Assembly: GCA_041674765.1 (NCBI GenBank)
Contig: JBAYVE010000001.1
Span: 134,177 to 198,176 of the forward strand
Direction of reading: 5' to 3'
Length of the DNA stretch: 64,000 nucleotides
Origin: Patescibacteria group bacterium
GTDB lineage: Bacteria; Patescibacteriota; UBA1384; XYA2-FULL-43-10; 1-14-0-10-43-13
The notes beneath the pieces are model-generated. The model was not told where the DNA came from, did no database searches, and saw nothing but the letters and a program-made list of their open reading frames with translations. Position numbers and translations under genes: made by a program. The stretch's first letter is position 1. The number at the start of each line of letters is the position of its first letter. This document shows positions 2,322 to 56,751 of the stretch, in pieces.

Positions 2322-2733
2322 ATCTTTAAAATCCTAATTTCTAATTACTAATTTTTTAATCAAATCCTAATTAAATAATTGATTAATTACATTTGGAATT
2401 GACTTGAACATTAGAAATTCTTAATTTTCTAATTCTACTGGTTATTTTATCAGAAAGAGGCGAGATTGTAAAGACATTGATTCCGTAATTTCGAAAACCT
2501 TGCTATTTTCCTGTTTCTTATTGTTCGAAGAGGAACGACGAGAACTTCGGTCACCTATTAGTACCGACAGACTTCTCATTTTTAAGAGTACCATTCGAAG
2601 AATAAATACATTTAATAGGGTTTTAGAGAATCACGGATTGATTTTTCTATATGATCGATCTTAGAATAAAAGGTTGTACTAAGTTGTCTATTCGAATACC
2701 ACCCTTAAATAATTGCCATTTAATGATTTATTA

Positions 2734-12332: not shown

Positions 12333-12476
12333 TTTAAACATGCTAATAGCGAAAAAAGCGGATTAAGCCAATACCATCATTATTCGCTCAATTAGCCTCA
12401 TTAGTCGTTAATATAGTAGTTGTCTCGGCCCATTGAGAACTCACCGAATACAAGACAAACATTGAAATAGAATCAT

Positions 12477-12511
12477 AAAAATACCTTCCGTAATCGGAAG
12501 GTATTTTTTAT
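12477..12511 (+). terminator. rho-independent terminator downstream of pnp
   Basis: Perfect 10-bp stem ataccttccg / cggaaggtat, loop taat, then TTTTTT. Confidence 0.7.
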
Positions 12512-12635
12512 TGTCGCTGGAAAGTGATGACTGTGGAAGCGATTTTTGCACCGATCACTGTTGGATGTGTGCTATTGGGTTTGCATTGAATGTTCCTTTA
12601 GGATTATGATGTAAATATAATAATCGGGAGGAGGC

Positions 12636-13556
12636 ATGATAAAAGATAAAGTTCTCTTTGCTGTTATTTTTGCTGTCATAATTTTAGTCGGCGGCGGTTT
12701 TTATGGCGCTAAAAAAATCAGTATCAAGGGTGACGTTGCTGGATCGTCTTGTGATGTAAATACCGCCATACAAGAAGGAAAGGCAATTCTAAAGACTAGC
12801 CATGGATATTTTAAGGCCAAAAAGATTGCAGATTTAAACGTTCCCTATCGCGCTGACGACGACTCAGTATTTGTCTATGCGGTTACAACAAGTCAGAAAA
12901 CCGGCCTTTTTTATGCAGGGAGAGACAGTTCTGGCACCATGAAGTTAACACATGATTATAAAACATACGCTTGGGACCCAGATGGAGATAAAACCGATTA
13001 TCCGAAAGAGTATGCCGTAGATGATAAGATGTTGATCCAAAACCTTTCGAAGTCTTTTAGCTTTGATAATTCCTTGTACATAATCGAGAACTATCCAAAT
13101 AATCCAATTGAAGGGGCCTCAGAGATATATGCCCTCGCAAATGGTAACTTTGCAGCTTGTTCCAGCGAAGGTATTAAATATGAATTTGATATGTTGGGTC
13201 ATGCCGTTAAAGTTTTTGATTTGAGTAACTCGATATCAGGTGTTATGGACGAAGAAAAGCTAGGACTGACAATACAATATATTGATAATGGGTCTGCTGT
13301 TCAAAGAAGCGCTGATGACAACAATACTCTTGCTCCCGATTTGAACAGGGAATTTACTATTAAAGCAGATGGCACCGGTATTTATCCTCTGGACTACGAA
13401 CTTCTTGAAGCTGGAAATAACTTTATGGTTGTATCAAAGAGCTCGGATGGCAGTTCCATTAGGTTGAAAATGATCAAAAAAGGAGTAGTAAATATTATTT
13501 TCTTTCTCCAATATAACCCAACCCAAATCAAGCCGATCACCCTCTCATTTATGTAG
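12636..13556 (+). CDS. hypothetical secreted/membrane-anchored protein
   Basis: GGAGG Shine-Dalgarno upstream. N-terminal hydrophobic segment. No recognisable motif. Confidence 0.5.
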   Translation: MIKDKVLFAVIFAVIILVGGGFYGAKKISIKGDVAGSSCDVNTAIQEGKAILKTSHGYFKAKKIADLNVPYRADDDSVFVYAVTTSQKTGLFYAGRDSSGTMKLTHDYKTYAWDPDGDKTDYPKEYAVDDKMLIQNLSKSFSFDNSLYIIENYPNNPIEGASEIYALANGNFAACSSEGIKYEFDMLGHAVKVFDLSNSISGVMDEEKLGLTIQYIDNGSAVQRSADDNNTLAPDLNREFTIKADGTGIYPLDYELLEAGNNFMVVSKSSDGSSIRLKMIKKGVVNIIFFLQYNPTQIKPITLSFM

Positions 13557-22467: not shown

Positions 22468-24813
22468 ATGGCATCTAAGTTGAAGTATGTTCTCTGGTTC
22501 AAGGAAATCGGTAAGGACGATATTCCGTTAGTCGGCGGCAAAGGCGCCAATCTTGGTGAGCTCACGAAGGCTGGCATTCCGGTGCCGAATGGTTTTTGCG
22601 TCACGGCTCAGGCTTACTACCACTTTTTGAAGAAGACCGGCATTGAAAACCAAATCAATAAACTTTTGAAAGGTCTAAATCCGGAGGATAACAAAAAGTT
22701 GAATAAAGTTGCTAAGGAAATTAAAAAGATTATCCTTGGAGCAGAAATTCCTGACGATCTCTCGAAAGCAATCGAAGAATCCTATTATCAGCTTGGCAGT
22801 TTCCCGGTGGCTGTCCGCTCTAGCGCTACTGCCGAAGATTTGCCAGAAGCCTCATTCGCCGGCCAGCAGGCGACTTTTCTGAACATCAAGGGCAAGAAAA
22901 AGGTGGTAGAAGCCACTTTGGCTTGTTATGCCTCCTTATTCGAAGCTAGAGCTATTTACTACCGGATTATCAACAAATATGACCACATGAAGATTGGCTT
23001 GTCAGCAGTCGTCCAAAATATGGTTCAGTCTGACAAATCGGGCATTCTCTTTACTGTCGACCCTGTTTCAGAAGACGCCGGCAAAATGGTAATCGAAGCA
23101 GGCTATGGCCTAGGAGAGGCAATAGTTTCCGGGTCTGTCACGCCGGACCGTTATATTATCGATAAATCAAAATCAGAAATTATTGACAAAGAAATAAACC
23201 GTCAGACTTGGAAAATTGTACATAATATTGAAGGGGGAGACAAGCATTTGGCAGTGTCGAAAAGCCTTCAATCCAAACAAAAAATCACCGATGAAGAGGT
23301 ATTAAAATTGGCGGAAATCGCCCTAAAAATCGAAAAACATTATGGCAAACCGCAAGATACAGAGTGGGCAATTGAAGACAGCGTAGTCTATTTCGTCCAA
23401 TCCCGTCCTATCACCACATTAAATAAAAAGTCAATCCATTCGGCAGGCTCCGGACAAGCAATAAAAAGTCAAAACGAAGGTATTACCTCTGGCGATTCTA
23501 TTGAAATCGGCAAAGCAACCGTTTTGCTTAAAGGTGCCGCCGCTTCTCTCGGGATGGCTTCTGGGCCTGTCAAAATAATTCATAAGCCGACAGAGATAGA
23601 CAAAATTCAGCAGGGTGATGTTTTGGTCACAGAAATGACAACCCCTGATTTTGTGCCAGCAATGAGAAAAGCGACTGCGATAGTCACTGATACCGGCGGT
23701 CGGACTTGTCACGCAGCGATAGTTTCTCGCGAGCTTGGCATCCCATGCGTTGTTGGTACAGGGACAGCCACTCACAAACTTGCTAACGGTCAGGTTATCA
23801 CCGTCGATGGTGCGAGCGGAATGGTCTATAAGGGAAAAATTTCACAGAGTCAGACTCAAAATACAGCAAAAATCGCAGGTTCGGGTTCACAAGTCTCTGA
23901 AGAGATACCTGTTACTGGCACAAAAGTTTATGTTAATCTAGGTGAGCCTCAATTGGCCGCTGAAATTGCAAAACTTCCTGTCGATGGTGTTGGTCTTCTT
24001 CGGGCTGAATTTATGATTGCAAATCTCGGCGAGCATCCGAAGGCAATGGTAGCAGCCGGTCGTTCTGAAAAATACGTTGCTGCTCTAGTGGAAGGATTAA
24101 AAACAATTGCCGGAGCATTTAACCCGCGTCCGGTAGTTTATCGCGCAACAGATTTCAAAACAAATGAATACAGGGGACTCAAAGGCGGGGATAAATATGA
24201 GCCGGTTGAGGATAATCCGATGATTGGCTACAGGGGGGCTTCCAGATATATCGCCGAGCCCGAGATGTTTGCCCTTGAACTAAGAGCCATCAAAAAGGTT
24301 CGAGACGAATTTGATCTAAAGAATCTCTGGATTATGGTGCCATTTGTTCGCACTGTCAGCGAGATGAAAGAATGTATGGAGTTGATTGAGAAGAACGGTT
24401 TGAAACAGGGCGCTGATCTCAAAATTTGGATGATGTGCGAAGTGCCATCAAATGTAATACTCCTCGAAAAATTTCTTGATCTTGGCATTGATGGGATATC
24501 AATTGGTTCCAATGATTTGACTCAGTTGACTCTTGGTGTTGATCGGGACAATCAAACATTGGCCAAAATCTTCGACGAACGCGATGAAGCTGTACAGCTG
24601 TCGATTGAATATGTGATCAAGACCTGCCGCAAGCGAAATGTGACCTGTTCTATCTGCGGTCAGGCTCCGAGCGTCTACCCTGAGATTACTGAAATGATGG
24701 TCAAGGCGGGCACGACTTCTGTTTCTGTCACTCCGGATATGATCATTCCAACAAAAAAACTAATCGCATCGGTAGAGAAACGAATACTGCTCTCAAAAAT
24801 TATTGAACGGTAG
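22468..24813 (+). CDS. ppsA: phosphoenolpyruvate synthase (pyruvate, water dikinase)
   Basis: ATP-grasp N-terminal domain, phosphohistidine motif TCHAAIVSRELGIPCVVG, PEP-utilising C-terminal motif GSNDLTQLTLGVDRDN. Confidence 0.9.
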   Translation: MASKLKYVLWFKEIGKDDIPLVGGKGANLGELTKAGIPVPNGFCVTAQAYYHFLKKTGIENQINKLLKGLNPEDNKKLNKVAKEIKKIILGAEIPDDLSKAIEESYYQLGSFPVAVRSSATAEDLPEASFAGQQATFLNIKGKKKVVEATLACYASLFEARAIYYRIINKYDHMKIGLSAVVQNMVQSDKSGILFTVDPVSEDAGKMVIEAGYGLGEAIVSGSVTPDRYIIDKSKSEIIDKEINRQTWKIVHNIEGGDKHLAVSKSLQSKQKITDEEVLKLAEIALKIEKHYGKPQDTEWAIEDSVVYFVQSRPITTLNKKSIHSAGSGQAIKSQNEGITSGDSIEIGKATVLLKGAAASLGMASGPVKIIHKPTEIDKIQQGDVLVTEMTTPDFVPAMRKATAIVTDTGGRTCHAAIVSRELGIPCVVGTGTATHKLANGQVITVDGASGMVYKGKISQSQTQNTAKIAGSGSQVSEEIPVTGTKVYVNLGEPQLAAEIAKLPVDGVGLLRAEFMIANLGEHPKAMVAAGRSEKYVAALVEGLKTIAGAFNPRPVVYRATDFKTNEYRGLKGGDKYEPVEDNPMIGYRGASRYIAEPEMFALELRAIKKVRDEFDLKNLWIMVPFVRTVSEMKECMELIEKNGLKQGADLKIWMMCEVPSNVILLEKFLDLGIDGISIGSNDLTQLTLGVDRDNQTLAKIFDERDEAVQLSIEYVIKTCRKRNVTCSICGQAPSVYPEITEMMVKAGTTSVSVTPDMIIPTKKLIASVEKRILLSKIIER

Positions 24814-25258
24814 GAATTCGATTTTTATCGTTCGAACATCGCATATTATGATTCAAACAAAGTGAGAACTAACTTAGTTTTTATATTTCAGCGGAAGATT
24901 TATCCTCTTAAAACCCCACAATAGATCCCACTTCGCTTCCTCCTTCGCTAAAGCTACGGAATGGCACGGCGAGGGACACGGTCGGAATGACTAACTATTT
25001 TGCAGTACTTAGTACTATAATCTGAAGATTTCTCCCCCTTTTCGAGGGGGAGCTAGAGGGGGTGTATTTAAATTTGTCATCCCAGGGGCAGGCAAAGTCG
25101 AAGGCCGGGGATTCAATGCCTCTTTATCGTTCGAACAAGCGAGAACTATTCTTTTTTTGTGCCTATCAAAGCAAGCGCTCTTACCTCAACCTCTTGACTG
25201 CTATGTCGATTCGGCGTATAATATATATAGAAATATCCCACAATAAGGAGGTACGGGG

Positions 25259-25687
25259 ATGTTTAGTTTTGGTGGTTCGCAGGGAATCAAGTTGTACATC
25301 AATGGCAGATTTTCTGCCCGAGGGATGACTTCGCTCAAGTTAATCAAGCGTCGAGTTATAGATAGTCGCTTGAGATCCCAATATTATCGTGCTCACATTG
25401 AGCACACCCGTGAAGTCACTCCTCAACAGAGAGAGCTATTAAGTCAACTGATGCCGTCGATCTCTTGCAAGCTCAAAACGATCGAAAGCGTCGCGATCGA
25501 CGTTTATGAGAAAAGCCGAGCCGAAGTGGTTGGCATGGTCGACCCAGTGACCGCTCGCGTTGACGTGCTGCAGGCAAGTCCTTTAGGAATTTTGCAATTT
25601 GCAGTTATTGTTGACATAACCATTCCTCGCGTCATCGACGCATGGAATGTTCCAAGTACAGAAAATAGCTGCCCCAAGGCATCTTAG
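25259..25687 (+). CDS. hypothetical protein in a GC-rich islet
   Basis: Strong Shine-Dalgarno AAGGAGG 7 nt upstream. Followed by a perfect intrinsic terminator. GC content clearly above the window average. Confidence 0.5.
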   Translation: MFSFGGSQGIKLYINGRFSARGMTSLKLIKRRVIDSRLRSQYYRAHIEHTREVTPQQRELLSQLMPSISCKLKTIESVAIDVYEKSRAEVVGMVDPVTARVDVLQASPLGILQFAVIVDITIPRVIDAWNVPSTENSCPKAS

Positions 25688-25706
25688 TCATAGCACTTAT
25701 CTTTGC

Positions 25707-25746
25707 CTTTCCCTGACCGGTTCGTCCGGTCAGGGAAAGTTTTTTA
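25707..25746 (+). terminator. rho-independent terminator
   Basis: Perfect 14-bp stem ctttccctgaccgg / ccggtcagggaaag, loop ttcgt, then a T-run. Confidence 0.75.
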
Positions 25747-25757
25747 TAAGGGAATAA

Positions 25758-26345
25758 TTATTTCTTCTTATTTTCAATCTCTTGATCTAGGTGATCGAAG
25801 ATATTGGTTAACTCTTTATTAAACTCCAGATATGGTAGGGCATAAGGTCTTCGGCTGTGAGAGCCGATATCCTCCGTTGTGCCTCGCCAAACTATTTTGT
25901 TGTTTGATACCTCTACCTGCAAGGTATAGCAGATTTTATCAAGCGCCTTTACCACTTTCGATTCGATTGTCTTGCCCTCATCATATTCTTGCCAGAGGCC
26001 ATAATATTCCTTCTGCATATCTGCCGGCAGCAAGGAAAATAACTTATCAGCGGAGATTATTTCTTTTTGCCTTTTTTTGTTCTTCTCCTGCTCTGTTTCA
26101 GGCCAAGAGTCACCAGTATATATTTCAACCAGATCATGCACAATTGCCAATTTCAGAGCTTTGAGTTCGTCAAAATTAATTCCGATTTCATCTTTCACAG
26201 TCATAATCATCAAGGCCAGATGCCATGAATGTTCGGCATCATTTTCGCGTCTTTTGCGGTCGGAAAGACAAGGGATCCGCTCAATTAGTTTGAGTTTCTC
26301 TGTCTCCTTCCAAAAAGCAATAATTTTTTGCAATCGGTTATCCAT
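25758..26345 (-). CDS. HD-domain phosphohydrolase (YfbR-like 5'-deoxynucleotidase family)
   Basis: HD motif NDAEHSWHLALMI. Start trimmed to M41 of the ORF-track entry to limit overlap with the neighbouring gene. Confidence 0.7.
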   Translation of the reverse strand: MDNRLQKIIAFWKETEKLKLIERIPCLSDRKRRENDAEHSWHLALMIMTVKDEIGINFDELKALKLAIVHDLVEIYTGDSWPETEQEKNKKRQKEIISADKLFSLLPADMQKEYYGLWQEYDEGKTIESKVVKALDKICYTLQVEVSNNKIVWRGTTEDIGSHSRRPYALPYLEFNKELTNIFDHLDQEIENKKK

Positions 26346-26368
26346 TATGTATGAGGGATTATCAATTT

Positions 26369-27229
26369 TTACCGCAGCATCATTATTCCAAAAAGAATGA
26401 TGACAATTGCTATATATTGTTTCAGCTCCAATTTTTCTCGGTAGACAAAAGCTCCGTAGATACAAACAACTAGCGGGCCAGCGGCGGCCAAAGCAGTCAT
26501 GATGCTCAAAGAATAAATTTTGATGCCCTGATAGTATGCCATCACGCCTACAATGGATAGCAAGGAAATTGCCAACACTGGTTTTATATTCGTGAAAGTA
26601 GGCTTTTCAACTCTATCTTTATTGAAAAGTAAAATAATAAACACAATCCCGAGCATCATTGTTTCCTCTAGATATGAGGTTAGGACAGCGCCCATTTCCA
26701 TTACTGGAATTCTGATCAGAAAAAAGTAAATACCCCAGCCGATAGCAGCAAGTAGGGCATAATAAATTCCGCTTGATTTTTGGAAGAGGTGAGAGTTTTT
26801 GAAATCCCTGAATTTGATAGATATCAGTAGAATGCCACAAATGATTATGGCTATTGCAAAAATTTCAGTTGCTGTAAGACGATCTTGATATGCCACCATA
26901 GCCAAGAAAGCGGTGAAGACGGTGTAAATAGATGACACGGGGCTGACAATTCCTACTTTCCCCAAATCCATTCCCTTATAAAAGAAGTAAAGCGGCCAAT
27001 AGCCGATGAAAGAGATAACAACAGTAATCAAAGCATATTTTAGTGAAAAATGAGCAAACTGGCCGGTCAAAAGTACAATGCCAAGTAGTATAACTGACAT
27101 AAAAATGCCCCGCCAGAACATAAGTTTATTCGGGCCGAAAGTCCTGATCGGCTTTTTGGAAATAGCGTTTCCAAGCCCCATTGTGACGAGAGCTAAAATT
27201 CCTAGAAATAATCCGAGAGATGCGTTCAT
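26369..27229 (-). CDS. EamA/DMT-family transporter
   Basis: Ten TM helices with duplicated EamA-like halves. Confidence 0.7.
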   Translation of the reverse strand: MNASLGLFLGILALVTMGLGNAISKKPIRTFGPNKLMFWRGIFMSVILLGIVLLTGQFAHFSLKYALITVVISFIGYWPLYFFYKGMDLGKVGIVSPVSSIYTVFTAFLAMVAYQDRLTATEIFAIAIIICGILLISIKFRDFKNSHLFQKSSGIYYALLAAIGWGIYFFLIRIPVMEMGAVLTSYLEETMMLGIVFIILLFNKDRVEKPTFTNIKPVLAISLLSIVGVMAYYQGIKIYSLSIMTALAAAGPLVVCIYGAFVYREKLELKQYIAIVIILFGIMMLR

Positions 27230-27326
27230 AATTTATAATTACCTTTTATTTCTTTATGCCTTGATAACTCGATAAACTTTTAACTAACCTTATACTTCAA
27301 GCTAATAATAACATAGATTAGATTGA

Positions 27327-27965
27327 TTAGATTTTTTCGACATTCGGTTTGACATCATATTCGTCTTTCCACTCCCAGCCGTGGGATTCGAACTTTGGTT
27401 TCAGTCTCTTTTTCAATTCCTTGAGCAACGGCTTGGAATCGGGGCAATTATTTACTGCTTTGTCGGGATATGGTGCGATCAATTCCGGATGGTCAAAACA
27501 ACTATCTCCGATTGCAGACATATGATTTATAGTCTCAATCTTGTCCAGTGCTTTGACCAGTTTTGCTTCCTCCGTTTTTCCTTCCTCGTATTCTTGCCAA
27601 AAATCATATATTTTCATACCTGATTTTTGAGGCAAGATTGATTTAAAATGATCTATTGCTTTTATTTCTGCTGCGCGCTTTTCTTCCTTCGTTTTCAAAC
27701 CGAAAGCAATAAGAGAATTATCGGTATCACCCGCTAATGCTTCTACTAAGTCGTGAATCAGTGCCATTTCCAAAGATTTTATCTTGTTCACCTTTAAATT
27801 TAATTCATCAATAGCCAAGAATACCAACATCGCCAAGTGCCAGGAATGATCGGCGCTTGACTCTTTATTTACCATCTGCGGAGTATTTCCCCAGCGTTTC
27901 GTGTTCTTCAGAGTATCCGAAACTTCAAGGAAATCAAATATTTTTTTAATTTTGTTTTCTTTCAT
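27327..27965 (-). CDS. HD-domain phosphohydrolase (paralog of 25758-26345)
   Basis: HD motif SSADHSWHLAMLVFLAIDE. Start taken at MKENKIKK (M25 of the ORF-track entry). Confidence 0.7.
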   Translation of the reverse strand: MKENKIKKIFDFLEVSDTLKNTKRWGNTPQMVNKESSADHSWHLAMLVFLAIDELNLKVNKIKSLEMALIHDLVEALAGDTDNSLIAFGLKTKEEKRAAEIKAIDHFKSILPQKSGMKIYDFWQEYEEGKTEEAKLVKALDKIETINHMSAIGDSCFDHPELIAPYPDKAVNNCPDSKPLLKELKKRLKPKFESHGWEWKDEYDVKPNVEKI

Positions 27966-28055
27966 ATCTGCTTGTCTGTCATTCCTGCGGAGGCAGGAAT
28001 CTAGGTACGAAAACGCGCCTTCTGGATCCCGGATCAAGTCCGGGATGACAAGGGG

Positions 28056-28658
28056 TTAGCTAATTAATAAATTACTGATTTCTCTCCAATTATAAACACG
28101 TTTTATATTTTTATGTTCAACGACTGGTTGGTTCCAAGGCGTATCGTACAGCAAGACAAAAACATTTTTATCAGCACAGTCTTCTGCATGCAATATTAAA
28201 TCCTCAACTAGAATATCGGCATTCAGATCATTACATATTTCTCCCTTGGATTTGCCTTCGTATCCCAAATGCTTATGGCTTGAAAAATATATTTCGTCAA
28301 AAACCTTGGGAAAATGCTGGTCTAGCCAATCAGAAGTTTTCTTCCGCAACTTATCAGGTCTGGAGGTTACTAAAGTGAGGCCAAAACCATTTTTTTTCAA
28401 TTCTAGCAGGGCAGATTGAGCCTCCGCTCTGGGTAATATCTTGTCAAAAGAAGGGCTCAAAAAAAATTCGTCTAGGACTAAGCCAATTTTTCTATAGCTT
28501 GGATCCAATATCGTCAGTCCATTGGGATCGTCTTTGGAAATATCTGTGATTTTATGAGAGGTGTTAAACTTCTGGTTATGAAAATCAAAAAACCTCTCTG
28601 TTAAATCATTCAAGACATCATCAAGATCAACGGCGATTTTTTTATTTATGTGTTTCAT
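28056..28658 (-). CDS. 5'(3')-deoxyribonucleotidase (NT5C-family HAD)
   Basis: N-terminal KKIAVDLDDVLNDL DxD motif and overall NT5C layout. Confidence 0.7.
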   Translation of the reverse strand: MKHINKKIAVDLDDVLNDLTERFFDFHNQKFNTSHKITDISKDDPNGLTILDPSYRKIGLVLDEFFLSPSFDKILPRAEAQSALLELKKNGFGLTLVTSRPDKLRKKTSDWLDQHFPKVFDEIYFSSHKHLGYEGKSKGEICNDLNADILVEDLILHAEDCADKNVFVLLYDTPWNQPVVEHKNIKRVYNWREISNLLIS

Positions 28659-28965
28659 TTAGTTTATCCCAATCCCAAACCCTTTTCTCATTAAATTCCA
28701 TTTTCTTTTTTATCTCTTGTTCAATATCAATCTCGAATACTCCGGCCAGGTTTAGCACTCGGATAATTATATCCGCCAGTTCCTCCTTGAAGCCGTCCTT
28801 TCCGTCAATATTTTTTCTTCGGTAAGCTTCGTAAGCTTCCGAAACTTCGGAATGAATCAGGGCTATCTTTTCGGCGACATTAATTTCCTTAAGGTTAGTA
28901 CCAAAGCCTTTTCTTTCGGCCTGAGCCATAATTTCACCAATTAAATCGTTCAAGCTTTTACTCAT
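28642..28965 (-). CDS. MazG-like nucleotide pyrophosphohydrolase
   Basis: IALIHSEVSEAYEAYRK...EELADIIIRVLNLA is an all-alpha NTP-PPase EExxE/D motif pair. Start trimmed to M19 of the ORF-track entry. Confidence 0.7.
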   Translation of the reverse strand: MSKSLNDLIGEIMAQAERKGFGTNLKEINVAEKIALIHSEVSEAYEAYRRKNIDGKDGFKEELADIIIRVLNLAGVFEIDIEQEIKKKMEFNEKRVWDWDKLNETHK

Positions 28966-29368
28966 TTCTAAATGATTGGAATTCATCAACCGTTGTTTGG
29001 TATAATTTGCCTTCGACATTAGCCGCGATTGTCATATTATGATCTCCGCGTAGAGCACCCTTCAATATCTCCTTACTGGTAAACTCGCTGAAAGCCAATG
29101 AAAGGACTTTGGTACCGTTTTCTCTGTCATGGCCGATGAAGGTGATGATAGGGTTACTACCAGATTCGATTGCAGCTAACAGCGCTTCCCGTGAAAGCGG
29201 AGCGTGGGCTGTTTCGTCTGCCACCGGGGCTGGTTCGCCGCTTGTAACAGGAATTGGGCTGGCTAGATCTATCCTGTCAAATGATAGTTGACCCTCGGGG
29301 GCCTTTCTCGCCTGAGGAATGTCGGGAGAAACTTCTGGATCCCTGGTAATGTCTTGCTCTCTGTTCAT
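28958..29368 (-). CDS. hypothetical protein (Pro-rich N-terminal half, GC-rich)
   Basis: ORF only. No recognisable motif. Confidence 0.35.
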   Translation of the reverse strand: MNREQDITRDPEVSPDIPQARKAPEGQLSFDRIDLASPIPVTSGEPAPVADETAHAPLSREALLAAIESGSNPIITFIGHDRENGTKVLSLAFSEFTSKEILKGALRGDHNMTIAANVEGKLYQTTVDEFQSFRNE

Positions 29369-29380
29369 AGGAACTCCTAT

Positions 29381-30028
29381 TTATATTAAGTATTTTTCTA
29401 ATTCGTCTAAATTATCAACTATCAAATCAGGCTTCAGAGCCGCCAAAAATTCCTTGCTTTGTAACCCAGTCGCTACGGCAGCCGATAATATGCCGGCTTT
29501 TTTTGCCGCTTTGATGTCATTGGCATGATCTCCGACATAAATAATTTCATCCTTCAACACATTATACTTCTCTATGCAATCAAAGAGAAGCTGTTCTTTC
29601 GTCTGTTCAGTATCAGAATGGCAAACGAAATCAAATTCCAAGCGGTCATTGTGGCCGTTTTCTAGGACATTTTGAATCACACCAGTGTTATTGCCTGTCA
29701 CGATACCCAGGATTTTCCCATTCTGCCGCAGTGAAGTAATAAAATTTTGAGCAATAATTTCTACATCAGCAAAATGCTTGGTCATATATTCGATCGTCAA
29801 TTTTTCTACTTCCTGCCAAGAGAGGGTTGTGTCAGGATTATTTTGAACCATCAGCCTGGCATTGCCGGCGACGCTAGAGCCCCAGGCCTGTTCCTCGGAA
29901 ATGCCTTGGAACTTCAAGTTATGTTTTTTATCAAGATCGATCCTAACTTTTTTAAAAATATCAAAAGAATCGATCAATGTCAGATCGAAGTCAAAAATTA
30001 CTGCTTTTACATGTCGTCTTCGATTCAT
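29381..30028 (-). CDS. HAD-family hydrolase (phosphatase)
   Basis: Motif I VIFDFDLTLIDS. Later motifs KILGIVTGN and VGDHANDIKAAKKAG. Confidence 0.8.
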   Translation of the reverse strand: MNRRRHVKAVIFDFDLTLIDSFDIFKKVRIDLDKKHNLKFQGISEEQAWGSSVAGNARLMVQNNPDTTLSWQEVEKLTIEYMTKHFADVEIIAQNFITSLRQNGKILGIVTGNNTGVIQNVLENGHNDRLEFDFVCHSDTEQTKEQLLFDCIEKYNVLKDEIIYVGDHANDIKAAKKAGILSAAVATGLQSKEFLAALKPDLIVDNLDELEKYLI

Positions 30029-30477
30029 TATTTATTATAAATTACATACGTTTTGGCGATTTTGTCATGAAGCGCCTGCTTTTTGCTATCAAAGCCTGCT
30101 ATGATATAGCCGATAAGCAGAGTAATTGCCGAAATAAATTTTCCAATGATTTCCCGGAGGATTACCGTCCAAACATCAAGTTTGGTGCCATCGTCTCTGA
30201 CAACTTTCAATCCTAGTGCCATCTTACCGACAGTAGCGCCGTAAATTGTGGTCATCGCTACATAGTAAGCCCAGCCCAAGAGCGTTCTCAAATAATATGA
30301 GGTGTTAAAAGAATATGACAGACTTTCACTGGGGGAGAGAAAGGGACTAGTAGGGAATATCAACGCCAATATTGGGCCCAAGACCAAGCCAAGCAGCAGC
30401 CCGTCGATAATCACAGCCAAAAATCTTACCCAGAAGCCAGCATATTTCTGACTATTTTCTTTTTTATCTTTTTCCAC
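30028..30477 (-). CDS. RDD-family membrane protein
   Basis: AGFWVRFLAVIIDGLLLGLV RDD signature. Three TM helices. Confidence 0.7.
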   Translation of the reverse strand: MEKDKKENSQKYAGFWVRFLAVIIDGLLLGLVLGPILALIFPTSPFLSPSESLSYSFNTSYYLRTLLGWAYYVAMTTIYGATVGKMALGLKVVRDDGTKLDVWTVILREIIGKFISAITLLIGYIIAGFDSKKQALHDKIAKTYVIYNK

Positions 30478-30542
30478 GACACTCCTTCTTTAGTAGTTGT
30501 TTAGATATAGGATACCAATCTTGGAATTGCTTGTCCAACCTC

Positions 30543-30571
30543 TTTACAAAAATATTGCCCTTTTATATAGT
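30543..30571 (+). promoter_or_regulatory. sigma70-like promoter for the 30603 gene
   Basis: TTTACA, 17-nt spacer, TATAGT. Confidence 0.45.
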
Positions 30572-30602
30572 ATGAGCGAACGCTGGCATATGGAGGTTCG
30601 GT

Positions 30603-30935
30603 ATGGAGAGTGCATCGCTATGGGCAGCCATATTGTTGGTTGCTCTCTACCTGGTCTATTTTCTGCTGTGCCGGAAGGGGGAAAAGGGGATAAGGAACGA
30701 GGCGAGGAGTGCCGCTCTGGCAGAAGCCGGTGCATCGTGGACGGTTATCTGCTCTCATGATATTAGACTGACGCCAAAACTATGCTGCCTCTTGCCGATG
30801 GCATGTGTTACCATCGTCTTGGGCAAAAGTCGAAACGGTGAGCCGGTCAACGAGCATGACAGCATCGTCAAAAGGGTCGATGTCAGCGTCTGCCAATGTG
30901 CATGGCGCTCGAGCCACCACATAGTGGAACTATGA
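30603..30935 (+). CDS. hypothetical small membrane protein in a GC-rich islet
   Basis: GGAGG Shine-Dalgarno 6 nt before the ATG. N-terminal TM helix. Own promoter and terminator. GC well above the window average. Confidence 0.45.
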   Translation: MESASLWAAILLVALYLVYFLLCRKGEKGIRNEARSAALAEAGASWTVICSHDIRLTPKLCCLLPMACVTIVLGKSRNGEPVNEHDSIVKRVDVSVCQCAWRSSHHIVEL

Positions 30936-30947
30936 ACGCTTGCATGT

Positions 30948-30985
30948 CTCCCGGGGAGCCAACCCAGCTCTCCGGGATTTTTTTG
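30948..30985 (+). terminator. rho-independent terminator
   Basis: 9-bp GC stem ctcccgggg...ctctccggg, then TTTTTTT. Confidence 0.7.
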
Positions 30986-31032
30986 ATTATGTAAAAGAGG
31001 AATGATTGAAACGCCCCACCCCGATGGGCTGT

Positions 31033-31929
31033 TTACTTTTTTGTGATAATTAGATAGTTAGCTATGAGGATAAATACACCGCCGATAATGATTGAGAAAG
31101 TGATGGGTTGATGAAAAAATATGGCGGCGAGTATCGTTCCAACCACAGGTTCTAAAAGCATTACGATGCCGGCGCTGACCGTGGGCACTGTTCTCACGGC
31201 TTTCAGATAAAAAACGTTATTAAATAAGACTGCGACCAAGCCAAAAAAAGCAATGGACAGCCATATTTTAAACGGCCAATGGAAGGAAAAATTCATTAGT
31301 GTCGGCTCTACCACAATATTCTTGGCTATGAGGAAGAAAACGACCAAAAATATTGCCATGAAGAGATGACTCACAATATATGTATTGATTGGACTATTAT
31401 TTTTTTTCGAAGCATAACTGCCGATGACTACCCAGAGCGATAAGCCGATTCCGCCAATGAGGGCTATAACTATGCCCAAGAGGCTGCCAATATCGTTTAC
31501 CTGCCACGGGCCGATCAGAAATATTATTCCTATTATCACCAATAAACAGGCAAAAATGTCAAAAAGATGTATTTTTTCTTTTAGGAAGATATGCGAAAGA
31601 ATAACCGTCCAAAGCGGCTGAGTGTATAGAAGCAAAAGTGCGATTGATACCGGAGTGCCGAGAATTACCGATCCAAACTGGCATATAGTGATAACAGCTT
31701 CGACCAGTCCGTAAAGAATAAAAACTGCCAAGAATTTTTTTCTTATTTGCAGTTGTTCCGAAAAAAAAGAAAAGGGGATCATGACTAGCAAAATTACCGC
31801 CAATGGCAAAAGTGAAATTTCAAATAGAGATAAGCCGGTATTCGAGAGAGCTTTGCCGCCGAAAACCACAAAACCGGAGAGGGCTGCGGCTAGGATTAAA
31901 AAGATGTAGTCATTTTTAAAATTATTCAT
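31033..31929 (-). CDS. EamA/DMT-family transporter
   Basis: Ten TM helices. Confidence 0.7.
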   Translation of the reverse strand: MNNFKNDYIFLILAAALSGFVVFGGKALSNTGLSLFEISLLPLAVILLVMIPFSFFSEQLQIRKKFLAVFILYGLVEAVITICQFGSVILGTPVSIALLLLYTQPLWTVILSHIFLKEKIHLFDIFACLLVIIGIIFLIGPWQVNDIGSLLGIVIALIGGIGLSLWVVIGSYASKKNNSPINTYIVSHLFMAIFLVVFFLIAKNIVVEPTLMNFSFHWPFKIWLSIAFFGLVAVLFNNVFYLKAVRTVPTVSAGIVMLLEPVVGTILAAIFFHQPITFSIIIGGVFILIANYLIITKK

Positions 31930-39184: not shown

Positions 39185-39991
39185 ATGATCAAAACTATAT
39201 CTACATTCAAACCCGAACTTCACTCTAAACTTTATTGGGCATTTAGCGATAGCTTCACGATGATTCGGCGCAATTTGACGCATATCATCAATAATATGGA
39301 TCAGTTGTTATCCCTTGCTATCCAACCGATAATGTTTATGCTGCTTTTTCGGTATGTCTTTGGCGGAGCCATCAACACCGGAGGCACTTCGTACGTCAAC
39401 TTTCTGGTGGCTGGAATTCTAGTCCAAAGTGCTGCCTTCGGGGCAACGACTACCTCTCTCGGTGTCGCAACGGATCTCACCAAAGGCATAATGGACCGTT
39501 TCCGTTCCCTCCCAATGCTTAGTGCGGCAATGTTGATCGGTCATACCACAGCAGATCTTGTCCGCAATTTAATTTCTAGCGTGATTATGGTAGGCGTTGC
39601 CTTTGCTGTCGGCTTTCGTCCTGAAGCTAGCCCAATGGATTGGTTCGCTGTCGTCGGTATTCTTATGCTCTTTACCTATGCTTTTTCCTGGTTATCGGCA
39701 ATTTTGGGATTGGTTGCCAAGAGTGTGGAAGCGGTACAATGGTTTGGCTTTGTTTTAATCTTTCCTCTGACTTTTGCCTCCAGCGCCTTCGTTCCGACTG
39801 CCGGTATGCCAAAATACTTACGCATCTTTGCGGAAAACCAACCTGTAACTCATGTAATTGAGGCAATCAGAGGTTTGTTAACAGGAAATCCGATCGGTGA
39901 TCACGGCTGGCTAGCTCTTGCCTGGTGTCTGGGCATCTTAGCCGTCTCTATCGCAATAGCCTCAAATCTCTTCCGCAAGATGGGAAGATAG
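39185..39991 (+). CDS. ABC-2 type transporter permease
   Basis: Six TM helices. Immediately follows the ATPase gene. Confidence 0.8.
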   Translation: MIKTISTFKPELHSKLYWAFSDSFTMIRRNLTHIINNMDQLLSLAIQPIMFMLLFRYVFGGAINTGGTSYVNFLVAGILVQSAAFGATTTSLGVATDLTKGIMDRFRSLPMLSAAMLIGHTTADLVRNLISSVIMVGVAFAVGFRPEASPMDWFAVVGILMLFTYAFSWLSAILGLVAKSVEAVQWFGFVLIFPLTFASSAFVPTAGMPKYLRIFAENQPVTHVIEAIRGLLTGNPIGDHGWLALAWCLGILAVSIAIASNLFRKMGR

Positions 39992-44515: not shown

Positions 44516-45637
44516 ATGGCTAAGAAAATTTTTGTGCCGAAGAAAGAAGAAGTCCTCGAATTCTCAGAAGAAGTGAACGAACTCTTGATGAAAGGCCGCA
44601 CTCACGGCTATATTTCAATGCAAGAAATGATCCAAGCCCTCCCTGAAGCGGAGGAAAACGTGCAGGAGCTCGATCAAATTTTTGATTATATGTACCGAAA
44701 AGGCATCGAATTTAAAGAGGAAGCAGAAAAGCCAAAAGGAATTTTAGCCTCTATCATTCAGGGCAAGAAAGAAAAAAGCTTGATTGATGAGTTGGGCCTT
44801 GGCGATATCGCAGATGACTCTGTCCGAATGTATCTTCGTGAGATAGGACGAATTGCTCTTCTTACAAATGAAGAGGAAATCAAACTGGCAAAGAGAGTTG
44901 AAAAAGGCGATATTTGGGCCAAAAAACGCCTTGCTGAGGCCAATTTGAGGCTTGTAGTATCTATCGCCAAAAAATATATCGGCAGAGGCCTGTCACTGCT
45001 TGACCTCATTCAGGAGGGCAATACGGGTTTGATGCGGGCGGTTGATAAATTCGATTATCGGAAGGGTTTTAAATTTTCAACATACGCAACGTGGTGGATC
45101 CGTCAGGCTATTACTCGTGCTATTGCCGATCAGGCTAGGACGATCCGGATTCCTGTCCATATGATTGAAACGATAAACAAATTGATTAGAGTTCAACGCC
45201 AGCTTGTTCAGGATCTTGGTCGTGAGCCTACCCCTGAGGAAATTGCGCAGGAACTGGGCCTTGAGGTTGATAAAGTTGAACATATCATCAAGATTTCTCA
45301 GGAAACAGTTTCGCTCGAGGCTCCAGTTGGTGAGGAAGAAGACTCAAAACTTGGTGACTTCATTGAGGACACCAAACATGTTTCTCCTGAAGAGCAGACT
45401 TCCCAAACATTGTTGAAAGACAAAATCCAAGAGTTTTTAAATGGTCTCCAGCCGAGAGAACAAAAAATTCTCAAAATGCGTTTTGGCCTGGAAGATGGTA
45501 GGACCCACACCCTCGAGGAAGTAGGCCAGGAATTCGGCGTTACCCGAGAAAGAATTAGGCAGATTGAAGCCAAGGCACTTTCTAAGCTGAAGAAGGCAGA
45601 GCGATCTTCTGATTTAGAGGAATATCTTCAGGGATAA
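44516..45637 (+). CDS. rpoD: RNA polymerase sigma factor, sigma70 family
   Basis: Region 2 [14 protein letters not shown], region 4 HTH, and position immediately after dnaG. Confidence 0.95.
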
Positions 45638-45647
45638 AAAGACAATC

Positions 45648-45692
45648 ACTTTAAAAAAATAACCAGCGAACGGCCGGTTATTTTTTTTATTT
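45648..45692. terminator. bidirectional intrinsic terminator between rpoD and the convergent gene
   Basis: A-run, hairpin ataaccagcg...ggccggttat, then a T-run. Confidence 0.55.
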
Positions 45693-45696
45693 ATTT

Positions 45697-45969
45697 TTAT
45701 CTGTAAACTCGCAAAGCTCGCAAGATTACGATCAGAATTATAGCTCCGATCACGCCCCATATGATTCCGGCCAGGCTAAATCCGCCGGCGGCGTAGGCGG
45801 AATCAAAGCCCAGAAGCCCGCCAAATATCCAGCGTCCAAGGATCGAGCCCAAGATTCCGATGATAATATTCCAGAGCAGACTACTTTCGCTCTTCATAAT
45901 CATGCTGGCAATCCAACCGATCAATGCACCGATAATTATCGCGATAATCCAACTCATAATTTCCTTCAT
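45697..45969 (-). CDS. GlsB/YeaQ/YmgE-family small membrane protein
   Basis: 90 aa, Gly-rich TM helices ([10 protein letters not shown]...GILGSILG), typical of the transglycosylase-associated protein family. Confidence 0.7.
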
Positions 45970-46039
45970 TAATTACACAAAAATTAACAGACGCCTGATA
46001 ATAAGTCATTGTCTGTTGCAACAAAATAGTTTTTCTATG

Positions 46040-46585
46040 CTAATGGATGCGGACGACGGAGAAGCGGAAGAGCTGGACGATCTCTTCGTTTTGAATGCCG
46101 GCCTTGTTTTTGGCGATTCGAACTTGCTCATCTATAGAATCAATTCCTGGCAAATCCGGTAGCAGTACGCCCGATCTGCCGTCACCTGTTCGAACGACGA
46201 CCCCAAATTGTTCCGGGTTTAGCTCTGATGATGAATCAATCGGTTCCAGTTTACTGAGGATATCGACAGAGACATCAAGGTTTTTTAGCTCATCTTTCTC
46301 GATAGGCCAAAAACGGCCATCTTCCGAACAGGCCGATGCTGCATTATGAATTATTTCGAGAGCCAGATTTTCTCTGATGGGAGTTATTGTTCCGATGCAG
46401 CCGCGTAGATCTCCCAAACTTTTTCGATGAATGGAGACAAAACAGCCGGCCTTCGTCTCTAATAATTCTGGATAATTGTCTATCTTTGGCAGCGGTTTAT
46501 TTTCAACGCACGCAGAAATTGTATCATTAGCTAGCCTCAGAACCGAATCCTTAATATTTGACTCATTTTTTTTGTCAAAATTCAT
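46040..46585 (-). CDS. AMMECR1-domain protein
   Basis: GCFVSIHRKSLGDLRGCIGTI signature. Confidence 0.8.
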   Translation of the reverse strand: MNFDKKNESNIKDSVLRLANDTISACVENKPLPKIDNYPELLETKAGCFVSIHRKSLGDLRGCIGTITPIRENLALEIIHNAASACSEDGRFWPIEKDELKNLDVSVDILSKLEPIDSSSELNPEQFGVVVRTGDGRSGVLLPDLPGIDSIDEQVRIAKNKAGIQNEEIVQLFRFSVVRIH

Positions 46586-46622
46586 AACTCAATTTTACTC
46601 TTTTTCCGCTAATGTTAAAAAC

Positions 46623-47003
46623 ATGCAAGGAATAGTTATAAATATCGAAAAAGCAGTCGAAGAAAATGAGAATTTTCGTGAGGTGGTTTTTACTGCCCCT
46701 CATAGTCAGCTTGTGCTGATGAGTTTGGAACCGAAAGAAGATATCGGATTGGAAGTTCACTCAGTCGATCAATTTATCAAGATCGAATCGGGAGAGGGTA
46801 AGGCCATTCTGGACGGCGAGGAAATAGAGATAGAGGGCGGCTTTGCTGTCGTAATTCCTGCGGGAGCGGAACATAATATCATAAATTCAAGCTCGGAAAG
46901 CAAAATGAAACTCTATACGGTTTATTCTCCGGCAGAGCACAAGGACGGAACCGTTCACACTAGCAAGGCTGAAGCAGAGGCTGCTGAGAAAGAGGACGAG
47001 TAA
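46623..47003 (+). CDS. cupin-domain protein
   Basis: Two cupin motifs (HSVDQFIKIESGEG... and IPAGAEHNIIN). Confidence 0.6.
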   Translation: MQGIVINIEKAVEENENFREVVFTAPHSQLVLMSLEPKEDIGLEVHSVDQFIKIESGEGKAILDGEEIEIEGGFAVVIPAGAEHNIINSSSESKMKLYTVYSPAEHKDGTVHTSKAEAEAAEKEDE

Positions 47004-47185
47004 TCTAGTCTTTCTCATATTCGTTAAATCCTATTTTATCGCTGTTAAAAAAAGCGGTAATTTTGGTTTATTTTATTAGATCAATGTCACCCTTCTTGCA
47101 TTATTTCAAGCAATTTGCTAAATTCTGTTCAGGCCCGTAGTAAGCGCGCGATTGCTACTGGTACTCGAGAAGGAGGTAACGCCTT

Positions 47186-47874
47186 TGCACATTCGCGGGC
47201 GACCCTCGACTTTTTTGCTGGCGCTCATGCTGCTTGCGGTCCTTTGGGGACTTGCCGCAGTTCAGGCCGCCACGACTCATTCACCGCCGACAGATTTGAT
47301 CGGCGTGCATCAGGCCAGTCCGACCAATGATGCTTCTTTCGAAGCCAGCGCCGCCTTGACGGACTATGAGGAGCCGGTTGCTGCGTTGGCCCAATTCATC
47401 GGCACTGAAACGGCATCGCCACCGCTCGCTTCGAGCAGCACTATCGCCGTTATAGCCGATCGTCTCATCTGCAGTGGTCCCGGATCGCCGGATCAAGTCA
47501 TCGCCATCAACCAGGCGTTGATTCCCAGCGCAAGGGACTGGATTCAAACGGATGGGTTGGTTACCTTGCCATCCAACCGCGGCTCGCCGGTAATCATCAA
47601 ATACAGCGGCTGGCCGTCTTCACCGTTGGAGGTTGCCCGTAGTGGTAGCCTTTCGCAGGCCACAGTAGTGGCCGGCTTTACTTCTCCTCGAGTGTCGGAG
47701 CAGAGACGTACTTTGCAGACGACCACGCGTTGTAGCGTGATCTCCACGGCATCGTGGTATCCGCAAAAGAGAAAGTTATCTACCAGCGCCCACGGCGATT
47801 CGTCCAATTATTGCCAGTCACCCATGACGATCACAGGCGCGAACACGGCTGTCATTCAGCGAGAACTCTCCTAG
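47186..47874 (+). CDS. hypothetical secreted protein in a GC-rich islet (TTG start)
   Basis: GGAGGT Shine-Dalgarno then TTG. Signal peptide LLALMLLAVLWGLAAVQA. GC around 58% against an AT-rich background. A long GC hairpin plus T-run terminator at 47915-47990. Confidence 0.45.
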
Positions 47875-48055
47875 CGAGTAGCTATGATGGAGAGGCTGAA
47901 AAAGGCCTAATCCGGTGCCCCGGAAACCTCGCGAGATTATCCCCCGTGGATATATCTCGAAACAGGTTTCCGGGCCCTTTTTTATTTTAAGAGACCGATT
48001 TCAGGGTTGCCCAAATACTTCAAAGAGAGTAACCTAAAAACGTTGTAGAAGTTAT

Positions 48056-48535
48056 TTGGAGGACAAAAGAATGGTTGCAAGAAAGAAAAACAAAAAGAAA
48101 AAAACAGGAGTCGACCTATTAAACGAAATTTCAGATAAACTCATCACTTGGGTCGGCACTACCAATTCGATTATTATTCACACGATCATTTTCATTTTTT
48201 CATTTATCTCTCATTGGATTTTCAATATTTCTTTTGATCTCGTGCTACTGATTCTTACTACAGTCGTTTCGCTGGAAGCTATTTATCTTGCCATCTTTAT
48301 CCAGCGATCTGTAAACCAGCAGGCCACCCGTCTGACCGATGTTGAGGAGACCCTCGATGATGTTGAGGAGGCCCTTGATGACGTCGAAGAATCTCTGGAC
48401 GAAGTTGAGGAATCAATCGATGATGTCGAAGAGAGTATTAGCCAGAAGGAAACAAGCGCGAATTCCAATACCGAAAAACGTCTGGAAGAAATAATTAAAG
48501 AGCTAAAAGCACTTCAGACCAATATGAAGAAATAA
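48056..48535 (+). CDS. DUF1003-like membrane protein with an acidic heptad-repeat C-terminus
   Basis: Two TM helices. Five tandem 21-nt repeats (48340-48445) encode DVEETLD/DVEEALD/DVEESLD... Confidence 0.5.
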   Translation: MEDKRMVARKKNKKKKTGVDLLNEISDKLITWVGTTNSIIIHTIIFIFSFISHWIFNISFDLVLLILTTVVSLEAIYLAIFIQRSVNQQATRLTDVEETLDDVEEALDDVEESLDEVEESIDDVEESISQKETSANSNTEKRLEEIIKELKALQTNMKK

Positions 48536-48626
48536 AAAATCCCTACCCACGGGCTCCGTTCATGTATGGGTAGGGAGGGATCAACGGCAAGTCACAGGAC
48601 CTTTGAATCTGAGCTTGCTATTCTGA

Positions 48627-49094
48627 TCAAGCACCCGCTTCGCAAAAGACACAGCGTGCGGGCTCGCCTTTCGCCGGTGCTTCCGGGGCGCGGTTCCATG
48701 TCATGTCGGCCGTTTGGACCCACTTCCCGCAGCGCGGGCATTTGACGATTTCAGTCTCACCAACATCGCGGAAGGTGCCCGTTTTGACGATCGTCCAGAG
48801 GATGGTGCAGACATCTTCGTCGGTGCCAGTCTGTATAACGAATGGTCGGTCTTTTTCGATCAGGGCAGCGACCAGCGGTTTCAGGATGTCCATTTTGGCG
48901 AAAAGAGAAGCTTCCTTGGTTTTTGCGTCGGGATTCTGGTACTTCTCGCCCCTGTCACCGTAGTGGGTAGCTTCGATGTAGCAGCCATCGTACTTGATCT
49001 GGAATAACACCGGTCCGTGTTCTGCAGTGTTCACTGCGAAAAAGGCAATTGCCTGTAGTACTCCATAAATCGATCTGCTAATAACTGTATGCAT
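48627..49094 (-). CDS. hypothetical protein with a C-terminal zinc ribbon, GC-rich
   Basis: CPRCGKW...CVFC motif. GC elevated relative to the window. Confidence 0.4.
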   Translation of the reverse strand: MHTVISRSIYGVLQAIAFFAVNTAEHGPVLFQIKYDGCYIEATHYGDRGEKYQNPDAKTKEASLFAKMDILKPLVAALIEKDRPFVIQTGTDEDVCTILWTIVKTGTFRDVGETEIVKCPRCGKWVQTADMTWNRAPEAPAKGEPARCVFCEAGA

Positions 49095-49380
49095 CTTTCC
49101 CTCCGTTTCTCATATCAGGCTTAGGCCTGTTTGCTGGCGTTATAATATAACATTTATTTCTGTTAGTCAAGGGTAAATTCCGTGATCCTAACCCCATCAA
49201 AGGTATTTATTCTTCGAATGGTACTCTTAAAAATGAGAAGTCTGTCGGTACTAACAAATGATCAAAGTTCTCGTCGTTCCTCCTCGAACAATAAGAAACA
49301 GGGAGATAGTAAGGTATTCGGAATCACGGCAAATTACAAAAAATTTGCAAAAAATCAATTTGCTCTCTAAAATTAGTCTT

Positions 49381-55850: not shown

Positions 55851-56300
55851 ATGAAGAAAAAAATCGTTTTACCGGCGCTTGCAATCGGTGTTCTGGCTTT
55901 GGCTGGATCAATCTGGTTTGGGAGCGTCAACGCAAATGCTGCTTCTGCCAATCACGATACGTTGATCGAGAAAATCGCCCAAAAATTTAGCGTCCCGAAA
56001 GAGGACGTTCAGGTGGTTTTCGATCAGGAAAGGACAGAGAGGCAAGCAACTAGAAGGGCAGAACAAAACACAAAGCTTGATCAGGCTATTGCCGATGGTG
56101 TCATCACGGCAGAGCAAAAAGACCAATTGATCGCTAAGCGAAATGAGTTGAATACTCAAGGGCAGAAGAATCGCGAAGAGATGCAAAAATGGTTTTCTGA
56201 TAATGGCATCGACCATGATAAGCTTGCTCCCTATATGGGAATGGGTGGTAACGGCGGCAGAGGCGGCCATATGGGCGGAATGCACCGTAACCAGAAATAA
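55851..56300 (+). CDS. hypothetical secreted protein with a Gly-rich C-terminus
   Basis: Signal peptide. C-terminal GGNGGRGGHMGGMH tail. Confidence 0.45.
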   Translation: MKKKIVLPALAIGVLALAGSIWFGSVNANAASANHDTLIEKIAQKFSVPKEDVQVVFDQERTERQATRRAEQNTKLDQAIADGVITAEQKDQLIAKRNELNTQGQKNREEMQKWFSDNGIDHDKLAPYMGMGGNGGRGGHMGGMHRNQK

Positions 56301-56587: not shown

Positions 56588-56751
56588 ACACTTTTATCTA
56601 TGGAATTACTGTCTTAGACACAGCAATTACTGAAGCTCCTTAATTAAAGTAGCGTCATTGTGCCCATTGCAAGTTCTTGAATTGCTTAGAAATTCAGCAT
56701 AAGATTTAAACATGAAAATATTATGTTCTTAGAATTATCAAGGAGGGATCT

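Follow-up and report, generated by a model that had tools for sequence, protein, structure and literature searches.

Organisation of the locus

The window, by which we mean the whole 64-kb stretch of DNA analysed here, carries four short open reading frames (ORFs), A to D, that lie among chromosomal housekeeping genes (Table 1). The region before A encodes FtsK, RecA, RecX and PPDK; HD-domain hydrolases, EamA transporters, NT5C, HAD and RDD are found between A and B; and C and D are surrounded by DnaG, RpoD, a Transgly_assoc protein, AMMECR1, a cupin, HAD and NUDIX. No phage, integrase or transposase genes were seen around A-D, and neither an integrase nor a tRNA adjoins the units.

Table 1. 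The four ORFs and the signals predicted for them, in window coordinates. GC z-scores are relative to the ORFs of the window.
Unit	Feature	Position	Strand	Description
A	Promoter-like site	25194-25222	+	TTGACT-17 nt-TATAAT (11/12); top score within 22-33 kb
A	Shine-Dalgarno site	25245-25252	+	AAGGAGGT, 6 nt upstream of ATG
A	ORF	25259-25687	+	142 aa; NCBI WC107_00715, hypothetical; 47.3% GC, z 1.3
A	Predicted three-way-junction RNA fold	25316-25428	+	113 nt inside ORF A; 14-bp closing stem (25320-25333 with 25409-25424) and two 7-bp hairpins
A	Intrinsic terminator	25707-25748	+	Perfect 14-bp stem (9 GC pairs), then T6
B	Promoter-like site	30543-30571	+	TTTACA-17-TATAGT (10/12)
B	Shine-Dalgarno site	30592-30597	+	GGAGGT, 5 nt upstream of ATG
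B	ORF	30603-30935	+	110 aa; N-terminal hydrophobic helix, 7 Cys; 53.5% GC, z 2.6; third-position GC 0.61
B	Intrinsic terminator	30949-30985	+	11-bp stem (8 GC pairs), then T7
C	Shine-Dalgarno site	47170-47177	+	AAGGAGGT, 7 nt upstream of TTG
C	ORF	47185-47874	+	229 aa, TTG start; WC107_00880, hypothetical; composition, for 47152/47185-47874: ~57% GC (57.4%, z 3.4), third-position GC 0.63
C	Terminator	47919-47988	+	Long hairpin, 11-nt perfect outer arms and inner palindrome, then T-run
D	Promoter-like site	49142-49170	-	TTGACT-17-TATTAT (10/12)
D	Shine-Dalgarno site	49100-49104	-	GGAGG, 5 nt upstream of ATG
D	ORF	48627-49094	-	155 aa; WC107_00890, hypothetical; 53.6% GC, z 2.7; third-position GC 0.61
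D	Terminator	48530-48576	-	Perfect 10-bp hairpin, then TTTTTTATTT on the minus strand

Judged from their predicted signals, A-D look like monocistronic units, each with a strong Shine-Dalgarno site and an intrinsic terminator. A sequence-only reading of the window had assigned each of them a strong Shine-Dalgarno site plus its own promoter and/or terminator, and this description holds: promoter-like sites scoring 10-11/12 precede A, B and D, and terminators follow all four ORFs, including the long GC hairpin that had been described behind C, whose outer arms lie at 47919-47929 and 47964-47974 ahead of a T-run. The terminator of D extends across the stop codon of gene 48056-48535, which is convergent with D. 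The promoters and terminators of the four units look host-type. The sole promoter candidate for C scores 7/12, was spotted by eye and falls under the scan threshold, so that C may be transcribed by read-through from the cupin gene.

The Shine-Dalgarno sites of A-D are spaced 5-7 nt from the start codon and surpass in strength those of nearly all host genes, 26 of 62 of which have no core match of at least 4 nt even with the start codon free to lie anywhere in the first 50 codons, the longest host match being 7 nt. Native genes thus seldom use a long Shine-Dalgarno sequence, and in the orphan units A and C the site is a perfect 8-mer. GC-rich genes are not alone in having a promoter and a terminator of their own, as the gene at 56752-57069, which has the GC content of the host, combines a promoter, AAGGAGG and a terminator in the same layout as A-D.

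Predicted products and coding status

Three of the products have recognizable features when read from the sequence. Codons 1-28 of C (47185-47268) resemble a Sec signal peptide (MHIRGRPST-FLLALMLLAVLWGLAAV-QA/A) and Ser, Ala, Thr and Pro are abundant in the protein; the N-terminus of B forms a 19-residue hydrophobic helix followed by RKGEKG; and the C-terminus of D holds a zinc-ribbon-like motif, CPRCG...CVFC, of which Pfam gives a weak hint. C is therefore likely to be exported by the Sec pathway, B to be a small Cys-rich protein anchored in the membrane and D a cytoplasmic zinc-ribbon protein, while A is likely to be a protein with a basic N-terminus made from a strongly structured mRNA. The start of C, previously placed at 47186, is corrected to the TTG at 47185. 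Single-sequence AlphaFold2 models of D (pLDDT 41) and A (pLDDT 48) were of low confidence.

Of the three frames, the annotated one scores highest for host codons in all four ORFs (A 0.08, B 0.01, C 0.14 and D 0.23, compared with -0.2 to -0.6 in the other frames), and each ORF fills its transcription unit. The chance, per frame, of such an open length given the base composition is about 5e-4 for A, 1e-2 for B, 2e-4 for C and 1.5e-3 for D. A, C and D are, on these grounds, very probably translated. B is probably translated as well, its coding status being the least certain of the four: its codon score is at the level of spurious ORFs, its length is marginally beyond chance, and its gene call is absent in NCBI and present in JGI, ENA and Logan.

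Homologs and related genomes

An exhaustive HMMER search with A over 1.84 billion cluster representatives returned the query itself and one repeat artefact only, the latter being P0023 (E 3.7e-4), a leucine-rich-repeat protein that aligns repeatedly to one 27-37-residue stretch and was rejected as spurious. C and D each matched only themselves among 5.8 billion clusters, and A, B, C and D are all singletons at 90% identity clustering. No relative of A, C or D was found in IMG/VR, and none of B in IMG/VR or in phage or plasmid records; the DNA of the C-D region had no similarity to phage and plasmid collections. For A-D there was no credible match in Pfam, PHROGs, PADLOC or NCBIfam, and a PDB sequence search gave none. 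The possibility that A-D are remnants of GC-rich genes in another frame was discarded, the ten longest alternative-frame ORFs being negative in Pfam, and no template/variable repeats of a DGR or paralogs involving the islets were detected in the window.

From these searches A-D fit the definition of an ORFan, or taxonomically restricted gene, with no homolog outside the genome, for B on a narrower search. The best matches in high-GC lineages that a GC-richer donor had led one to look for did not materialize, as A, C and D are without any homolog and B has none in the collections searched. Since no donor homolog was found, no donor, high-GC or other, can be named, and nothing points to a high-GC host lineage as the source.

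For a closer comparison, 142 related loci were collected via RpoD and PPDK. The nearest relatives share 70-84% identity in the PPDK protein and 76-78% in rpoD DNA, and when RpoD was searched against GTDB species genomes, most matches came from distant phyla and none from a close relative. Neither tblastn nor blastn found the islet sequences A-D in the 142 loci (~600 kb). About 25 of these loci include the syntenic PPDK neighbourhood; the gene order upstream of PPDK is kept in about 20 relatives, and the region downstream is variable. In loci L009 and L059 the genes that come next (EamA, HD) follow just 69 nt after PPDK and the slot of A is empty; together with L045, where it is otherwise filled, these loci document the absence of A at its syntenic position.

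Other small genes occupy the slot downstream of PPDK in some relatives. The PPDK-HD gap of L045 contains, at 1293-1496, a 67-aa membrane protein unrelated to A, with its own Shine-Dalgarno site and terminator, which also occurs elsewhere in L001 and L002. L017 encodes a 106-aa Pro/Thr/Ala-rich protein at 12418-12738 and L014 a basic protein of about 125 aa on the minus strand at ~12400-12800, each again with its own Shine-Dalgarno site and terminator. The small genes of L017, L014 and L045 are mutually unrelated, and the junction downstream of PPDK appears to be a hot spot of small-gene turnover.

The genome is a metagenome-assembled one (MAG), and sharp-edged GC-rich blocks within it could in principle be chimeric, i.e. 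stretches of a GC-richer organism spliced in during assembly or binning. Such an artefact is extremely improbable, because the islets are present in both the NCBI/JGI (365,542 bp) and the ENA (365,533 bp) assemblies, and independent Logan contigs (run SRR6484325) match window positions 25039-28049 and 44597-49232 at 100% identity, joining A with HD and EamA, and D and C with cupin, AMMECR1 and RpoD. The blocks are, moreover, 0.4-0.9 kb in size and bear host-like promoters and terminators at their edges. A search for a target-site duplication or terminal repeats round the units yielded nothing beyond a weak direct repeat (18/23) on either side of C, which was set aside as the flank alignment was unconvincing.

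Base composition and codon usage

The window as a whole has a GC content of 40.6%, and its 71 greedy ORFs average 40.9% (sd 4.8). B, C and D rank as the top three of these ORFs, exceed the GC content of their genome by 12-16 points and contain the only 400-nt segments that lie at least 11 points over the window mean. The GC peak of A over 200 nt is 0.535, a level that several housekeeping genes also reach, and ORFs with a GC content like that of A are found at 28958-29368, 45697-45969, 55851-56300 and 39185-39991.

The contributions of amino acids and codons were separated by back-translating the proteins with host codon frequencies. The GC content expected in this way is 0.447 for A, 0.472 for B, 0.507 for C and 0.464 for D, compared with a mean of 0.405 for host genes (sd 0.026, max 0.455). 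Third-position GC exceeds the host-codon expectation with z-scores of 4.1, 6.4 and 5.4 in B, C and D and of 1.8 in A, the corresponding values of host genes having a mean of -0.09, an sd of 1.38 and a max of 2.75. In a codon likelihood test of a host codon model against a B+C+D model, the difference LL(host)-LL(BCD) was +0.02 bits per codon for A, -0.08 for B, -0.01 for C and -0.10 for D, against +0.17 for host genes (sd 0.08, min -0.07), so that the synonymous codons of B, C and D fit the host model more poorly than those of nearly all host genes. The untranslated regions of units B, C and D (233 nt) have a GC content of 52.4%, compared with 36.0% for all intergenic DNA of the window; the untranslated parts being GC-rich too, the GC-richness extends beyond codons to the entire transcribed block. 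The GC-normalised dinucleotide signature (delta*) of the islets, which is noisy at such length, lies in the 77th-97th percentile of 500-nt windows and is unexceptional.

B, C and D are thus genuine compositional outliers with a foreign composition, and their codon usage is atypical in the way of horizontally acquired islets. A lies within host variance and is no member of the GC-rich class. The original description of GC-rich islets consequently stands for B, C and D, which are outliers in both GC and third-position GC, and has to be withdrawn for A, whose GC content and codon usage are inside the normal variance.

Two ORFs illustrate a GC excess of another kind. The ORF at 28958-29368 on the minus strand of the window is a fifth orphan, a singleton at 90% clustering that encodes 136 aa at 47.9% GC; the N-terminal half of its product is rich in Pro, Ala and Glu, the ORF shares 62 nt with the start of the following gene, and no credible match to it came from Pfam, PHROGs, PADLOC or NCBIfam. 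Its GC excess is wholly amino-acid driven (third-position z 1.2). The PPDK-downstream gene of L017 (12418-12738), at 64% GC, likewise has the third-position GC of its host.

These two purely amino-acid-driven cases lend some weight to an alternative in which A-D are not imported but native, either fast-evolving or born de novo. At 40% GC only GC-rich sequence stays free of stop codons over a long distance, so that young ORFs are automatically GC-rich, and proteins rich in Ala, Pro, Ser and Thr add to the GC content; the excess in the islets is indeed partly amino-acid driven, with expected values of 0.46-0.51 for B, C and D. The lack of any homolog, the host-type expression signals and the indistinct dinucleotide signature are also what such an origin would give. 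A native origin suits A well, as its modest GC excess is mostly amino-acid driven. For B, C and D, however, a third-position excess of 4-6 sd and GC-rich untranslated regions go beyond an amino-acid explanation, and these units fit a de novo origin poorly because the intergenic DNA, at 36% GC, offers no obvious GC-rich raw material. Nor do the relatives hold anything comparable: among 607 ORFs in 599 kb, none combined a GC excess of at least 0.12 with a third-position excess of at least 0.20. As an account of all four units, a native origin is unlikely.

RNA structure within unit A

GC-rich islands in AT-rich genomes are frequently RNA genes. A scan of the entire window with Rfam at the gathering threshold returned only a tRNA-Ser at 35622, and a scan of 24800-31100 at E<=10 returned noise only; on these scans, which covered the C-D region at the gathering threshold, the idea that A-D are known RNA genes was rejected.

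The transcript of A without its terminator nevertheless has a fold z-score of about -4, most of which comes from the 113-nt three-way junction. The junction itself has a z-score of -4.94, none of 200 shuffles being equally stable, and its MFE and centroid structures coincide. For comparison with the A transcript, the first 472 nt of 41 host genes have a fold z-score of -0.40 (sd 1.20, min -2.87). The transcripts of B and D, at -0.95 and -0.41, are no more structured than shuffles, and that of C scores -2.6, a value from 20 shuffles. As predicted by folding, the mRNA of A thus appears to hold an unusually stable structure. No other fold like it occurs in the window, and it belongs to no known family.

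The strength of this fold raises the question whether A above all, and possibly B, might be a structured non-coding RNA or an RNA of dual function, with an incidental ORF. The score of the A transcript lies below the host minimum and the junction within it is very stable, C scores -2.6 on 20 shuffles, and B combines a coding score near 0 with the missing NCBI gene call. The reading is very improbable all the same, given that no Rfam family matches, that B and D are no more structured than shuffles, that all four units have a correctly spaced Shine-Dalgarno site and an ORF that fills the unit, that an open frame of 142 codons at 47% GC would arise by chance with a frequency of only about 5e-4 per frame, and that C bears what reads as a textbook signal peptide.

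Repeats and other elements in the window

Several repeated elements occur in the window. An element of about 155 nt is present twice in inverted orientation with 87-89% identity, at 2483-2637 (-) and 49179-49329 (+), and ends in short terminal inverted repeats, CCGTGAT...ATCACGG. The first copy lies upstream of the small gene 2067-2321; the second adjoins the promoter of unit D, upstream of the HAD gene. The 142 related loci lack the element and it has no Rfam match. The independent Logan contig is broken within this sequence, a sign of further copies in the genome; possible identities are a MITE-like element and a leader RNA.

The DNA at 24900-25110, after the PPDK stop codon and ahead of the promoter of unit A, is a region of GC-rich REP/MITE-like repeats, examples being GTCATCCCAGGGGCAGGCAAAG and ...GGAATGAC, with duplicated TTTATCGTTCGAACA flanks at 24822 and 25121. 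A 35-nt piece of it (25030-25064) is 94% identical to the PPDK-downstream region of the relative L003, and a Logan contig breaks within the repeats. Hairpin repeats like GTAGCCCAGCCTTTAGGCTG, with repeat families of 44-62 nt, are clustered in the intergenic region 57100-58240.

A 46-nt promoter-like sequence, TTGAAT-17-TAAGAT, occurs in three copies (56670-56715, 58246-58291 and 58793-58838), two of which end in ATGA at the starts of the genes 58282 and 58835; this position suggests leaderless or very short-leader mRNAs for a small paralogous gene set. Finally, a 39-nt palindrome with a perfect core, TTCGGGATATTTGAACGATCGTTCAAATATCCCGAA, is found in two copies flanking the gene 62134-62736, at 62060-62098 and 62734-62775, which look like operator sites.

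Origin of the units

On balance we lean towards a reading in which A-D are lineage-specific orphan genes and B, C and D were probably imported horizontally, as whole blocks, from an unsampled GC-richer source. Each unit would be a short, self-sufficient transcription unit that does not need its neighbours, composed of a sigma-70-type promoter (weak or absent in C), a leader of 25-60 nt, a strong Shine-Dalgarno site, one ORF and a Rho-independent terminator, and the units would occupy variable junctions between housekeeping operons. B, C and D would have been imported recently, each as a ready-made cassette, from a source of approximately 53-57% GC, for which a mobile element, a phage or another organism are candidates. 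A would either have been acquired earlier and since ameliorated or have evolved locally.

The direction and recency of the transfer of B, C and D and its cassette mode are, we infer from the sequences, most likely those just described. As neither a donor nor a homolog was found, the case for transfer is made by composition and by absence from relatives, and the complete lack of homologs implies that the donor is unsampled. Homologs in a donor lineage with a phylogeny incongruent with that of the host were not found for A-D, and the units have no integrase, tRNA target or convincing flanking direct repeats of the kind that are hallmarks of horizontal islets. The idea of a recent import from a GC-richer donor, as initially put forward for all four genes, is accordingly upheld for B, C and D, by their composition and because relatives lack them, does not extend to A, and stays without a donor.

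Patescibacteria have tiny genomes and are believed to live attached to a host, and their accessory DNA is a clue to host interaction. B, C and D are strongly signalled orphans whose composition is foreign; C has a signal peptide and B a membrane anchor, as read from the sequence, and a role in such an interaction is a reasonable possibility for the three. A-D are an ordinary kind of orphan accessory gene, three of them compositionally foreign, and at present they are a catalogue entry rather than a mechanism. The practical outcome is a correction: the focal gene A is compositionally ordinary, the test for a high-GC donor came back empty, and the units match no known RNA family.

A bolder proposal, which we regard as quite unlikely when all its parts are taken together, is that B, C and D, and perhaps A, are chromosomal equivalents of phage morons and effectors derived from a GC-richer partner, and that the junction in A is, separately, a new RNA element. 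The units could be ready-to-express cassettes whose promoter, Shine-Dalgarno and terminator signals are stronger than those of native genes, in an ultra-small and probably episymbiotic bacterium; their source could be a partner organism of higher GC content, or the mobile elements of that partner; and the exported or membrane effectors could serve host interaction. The three-way junction of A could prove to be a new RNA, either cis-acting or of dual function.

Comparison with known systems

From integron gene cassettes the units differ in that A-D lie on both strands, are scattered, and each have a promoter (predicted, and for C a weak candidate), with no integrase in the window context. The long hairpin after C, which a T-run follows, looks like a terminator and not like an attC site.

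In Patescibacteria, horizontally acquired regions are reported to consist mostly of genes that cannot be annotated (61.6%; PMC12455944). The transfers reported have mostly taken place between Patescibacteria, with identifiable partners. B, C and D resemble such transferred genes and mini islands in their atypical composition and their sporadic occurrence among relatives. Unlike mini islands, A-D are single genes, without partner sequence or integrase, tRNA or repeat hallmarks.

The morons of HK97/HK022-type phages ('more DNA'; PMC3594210) offer a parallel in layout. Like A-D, morons consist of one gene with its own promoter and terminator, which in the present case are predicted from sequence and include a 7/12 promoter for C. 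The GC content of morons is unlike that of their neighbours, as is true of B, C and D and not of A, and, as at the site of unit A, they are extra inserts where relatives hold nothing or another gene. Morons, however, lie in a phage context, whereas A-D lie among chromosomal housekeeping genes and have no match in PHROG, IMG/VR or INPHARED. For want of this context B, C and D are not classed as morons; their layout can, by analogy, be called functionally moron-like.

The best-fitting class is that of the ORFans, with which A-D share their short length, their lack of homologs, their restriction to a single genome and their location in variable regions. ORFans are typically AT-richer than their own genome (PMC3514957). 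B, C and D differ from them in being 12-16 points GC-richer than the genome and in carrying signals stronger than those of native genes, and are therefore atypical ORFans, whose GC-richness runs opposite to the usual AT-rich bias of both ORFans and acquired DNA.
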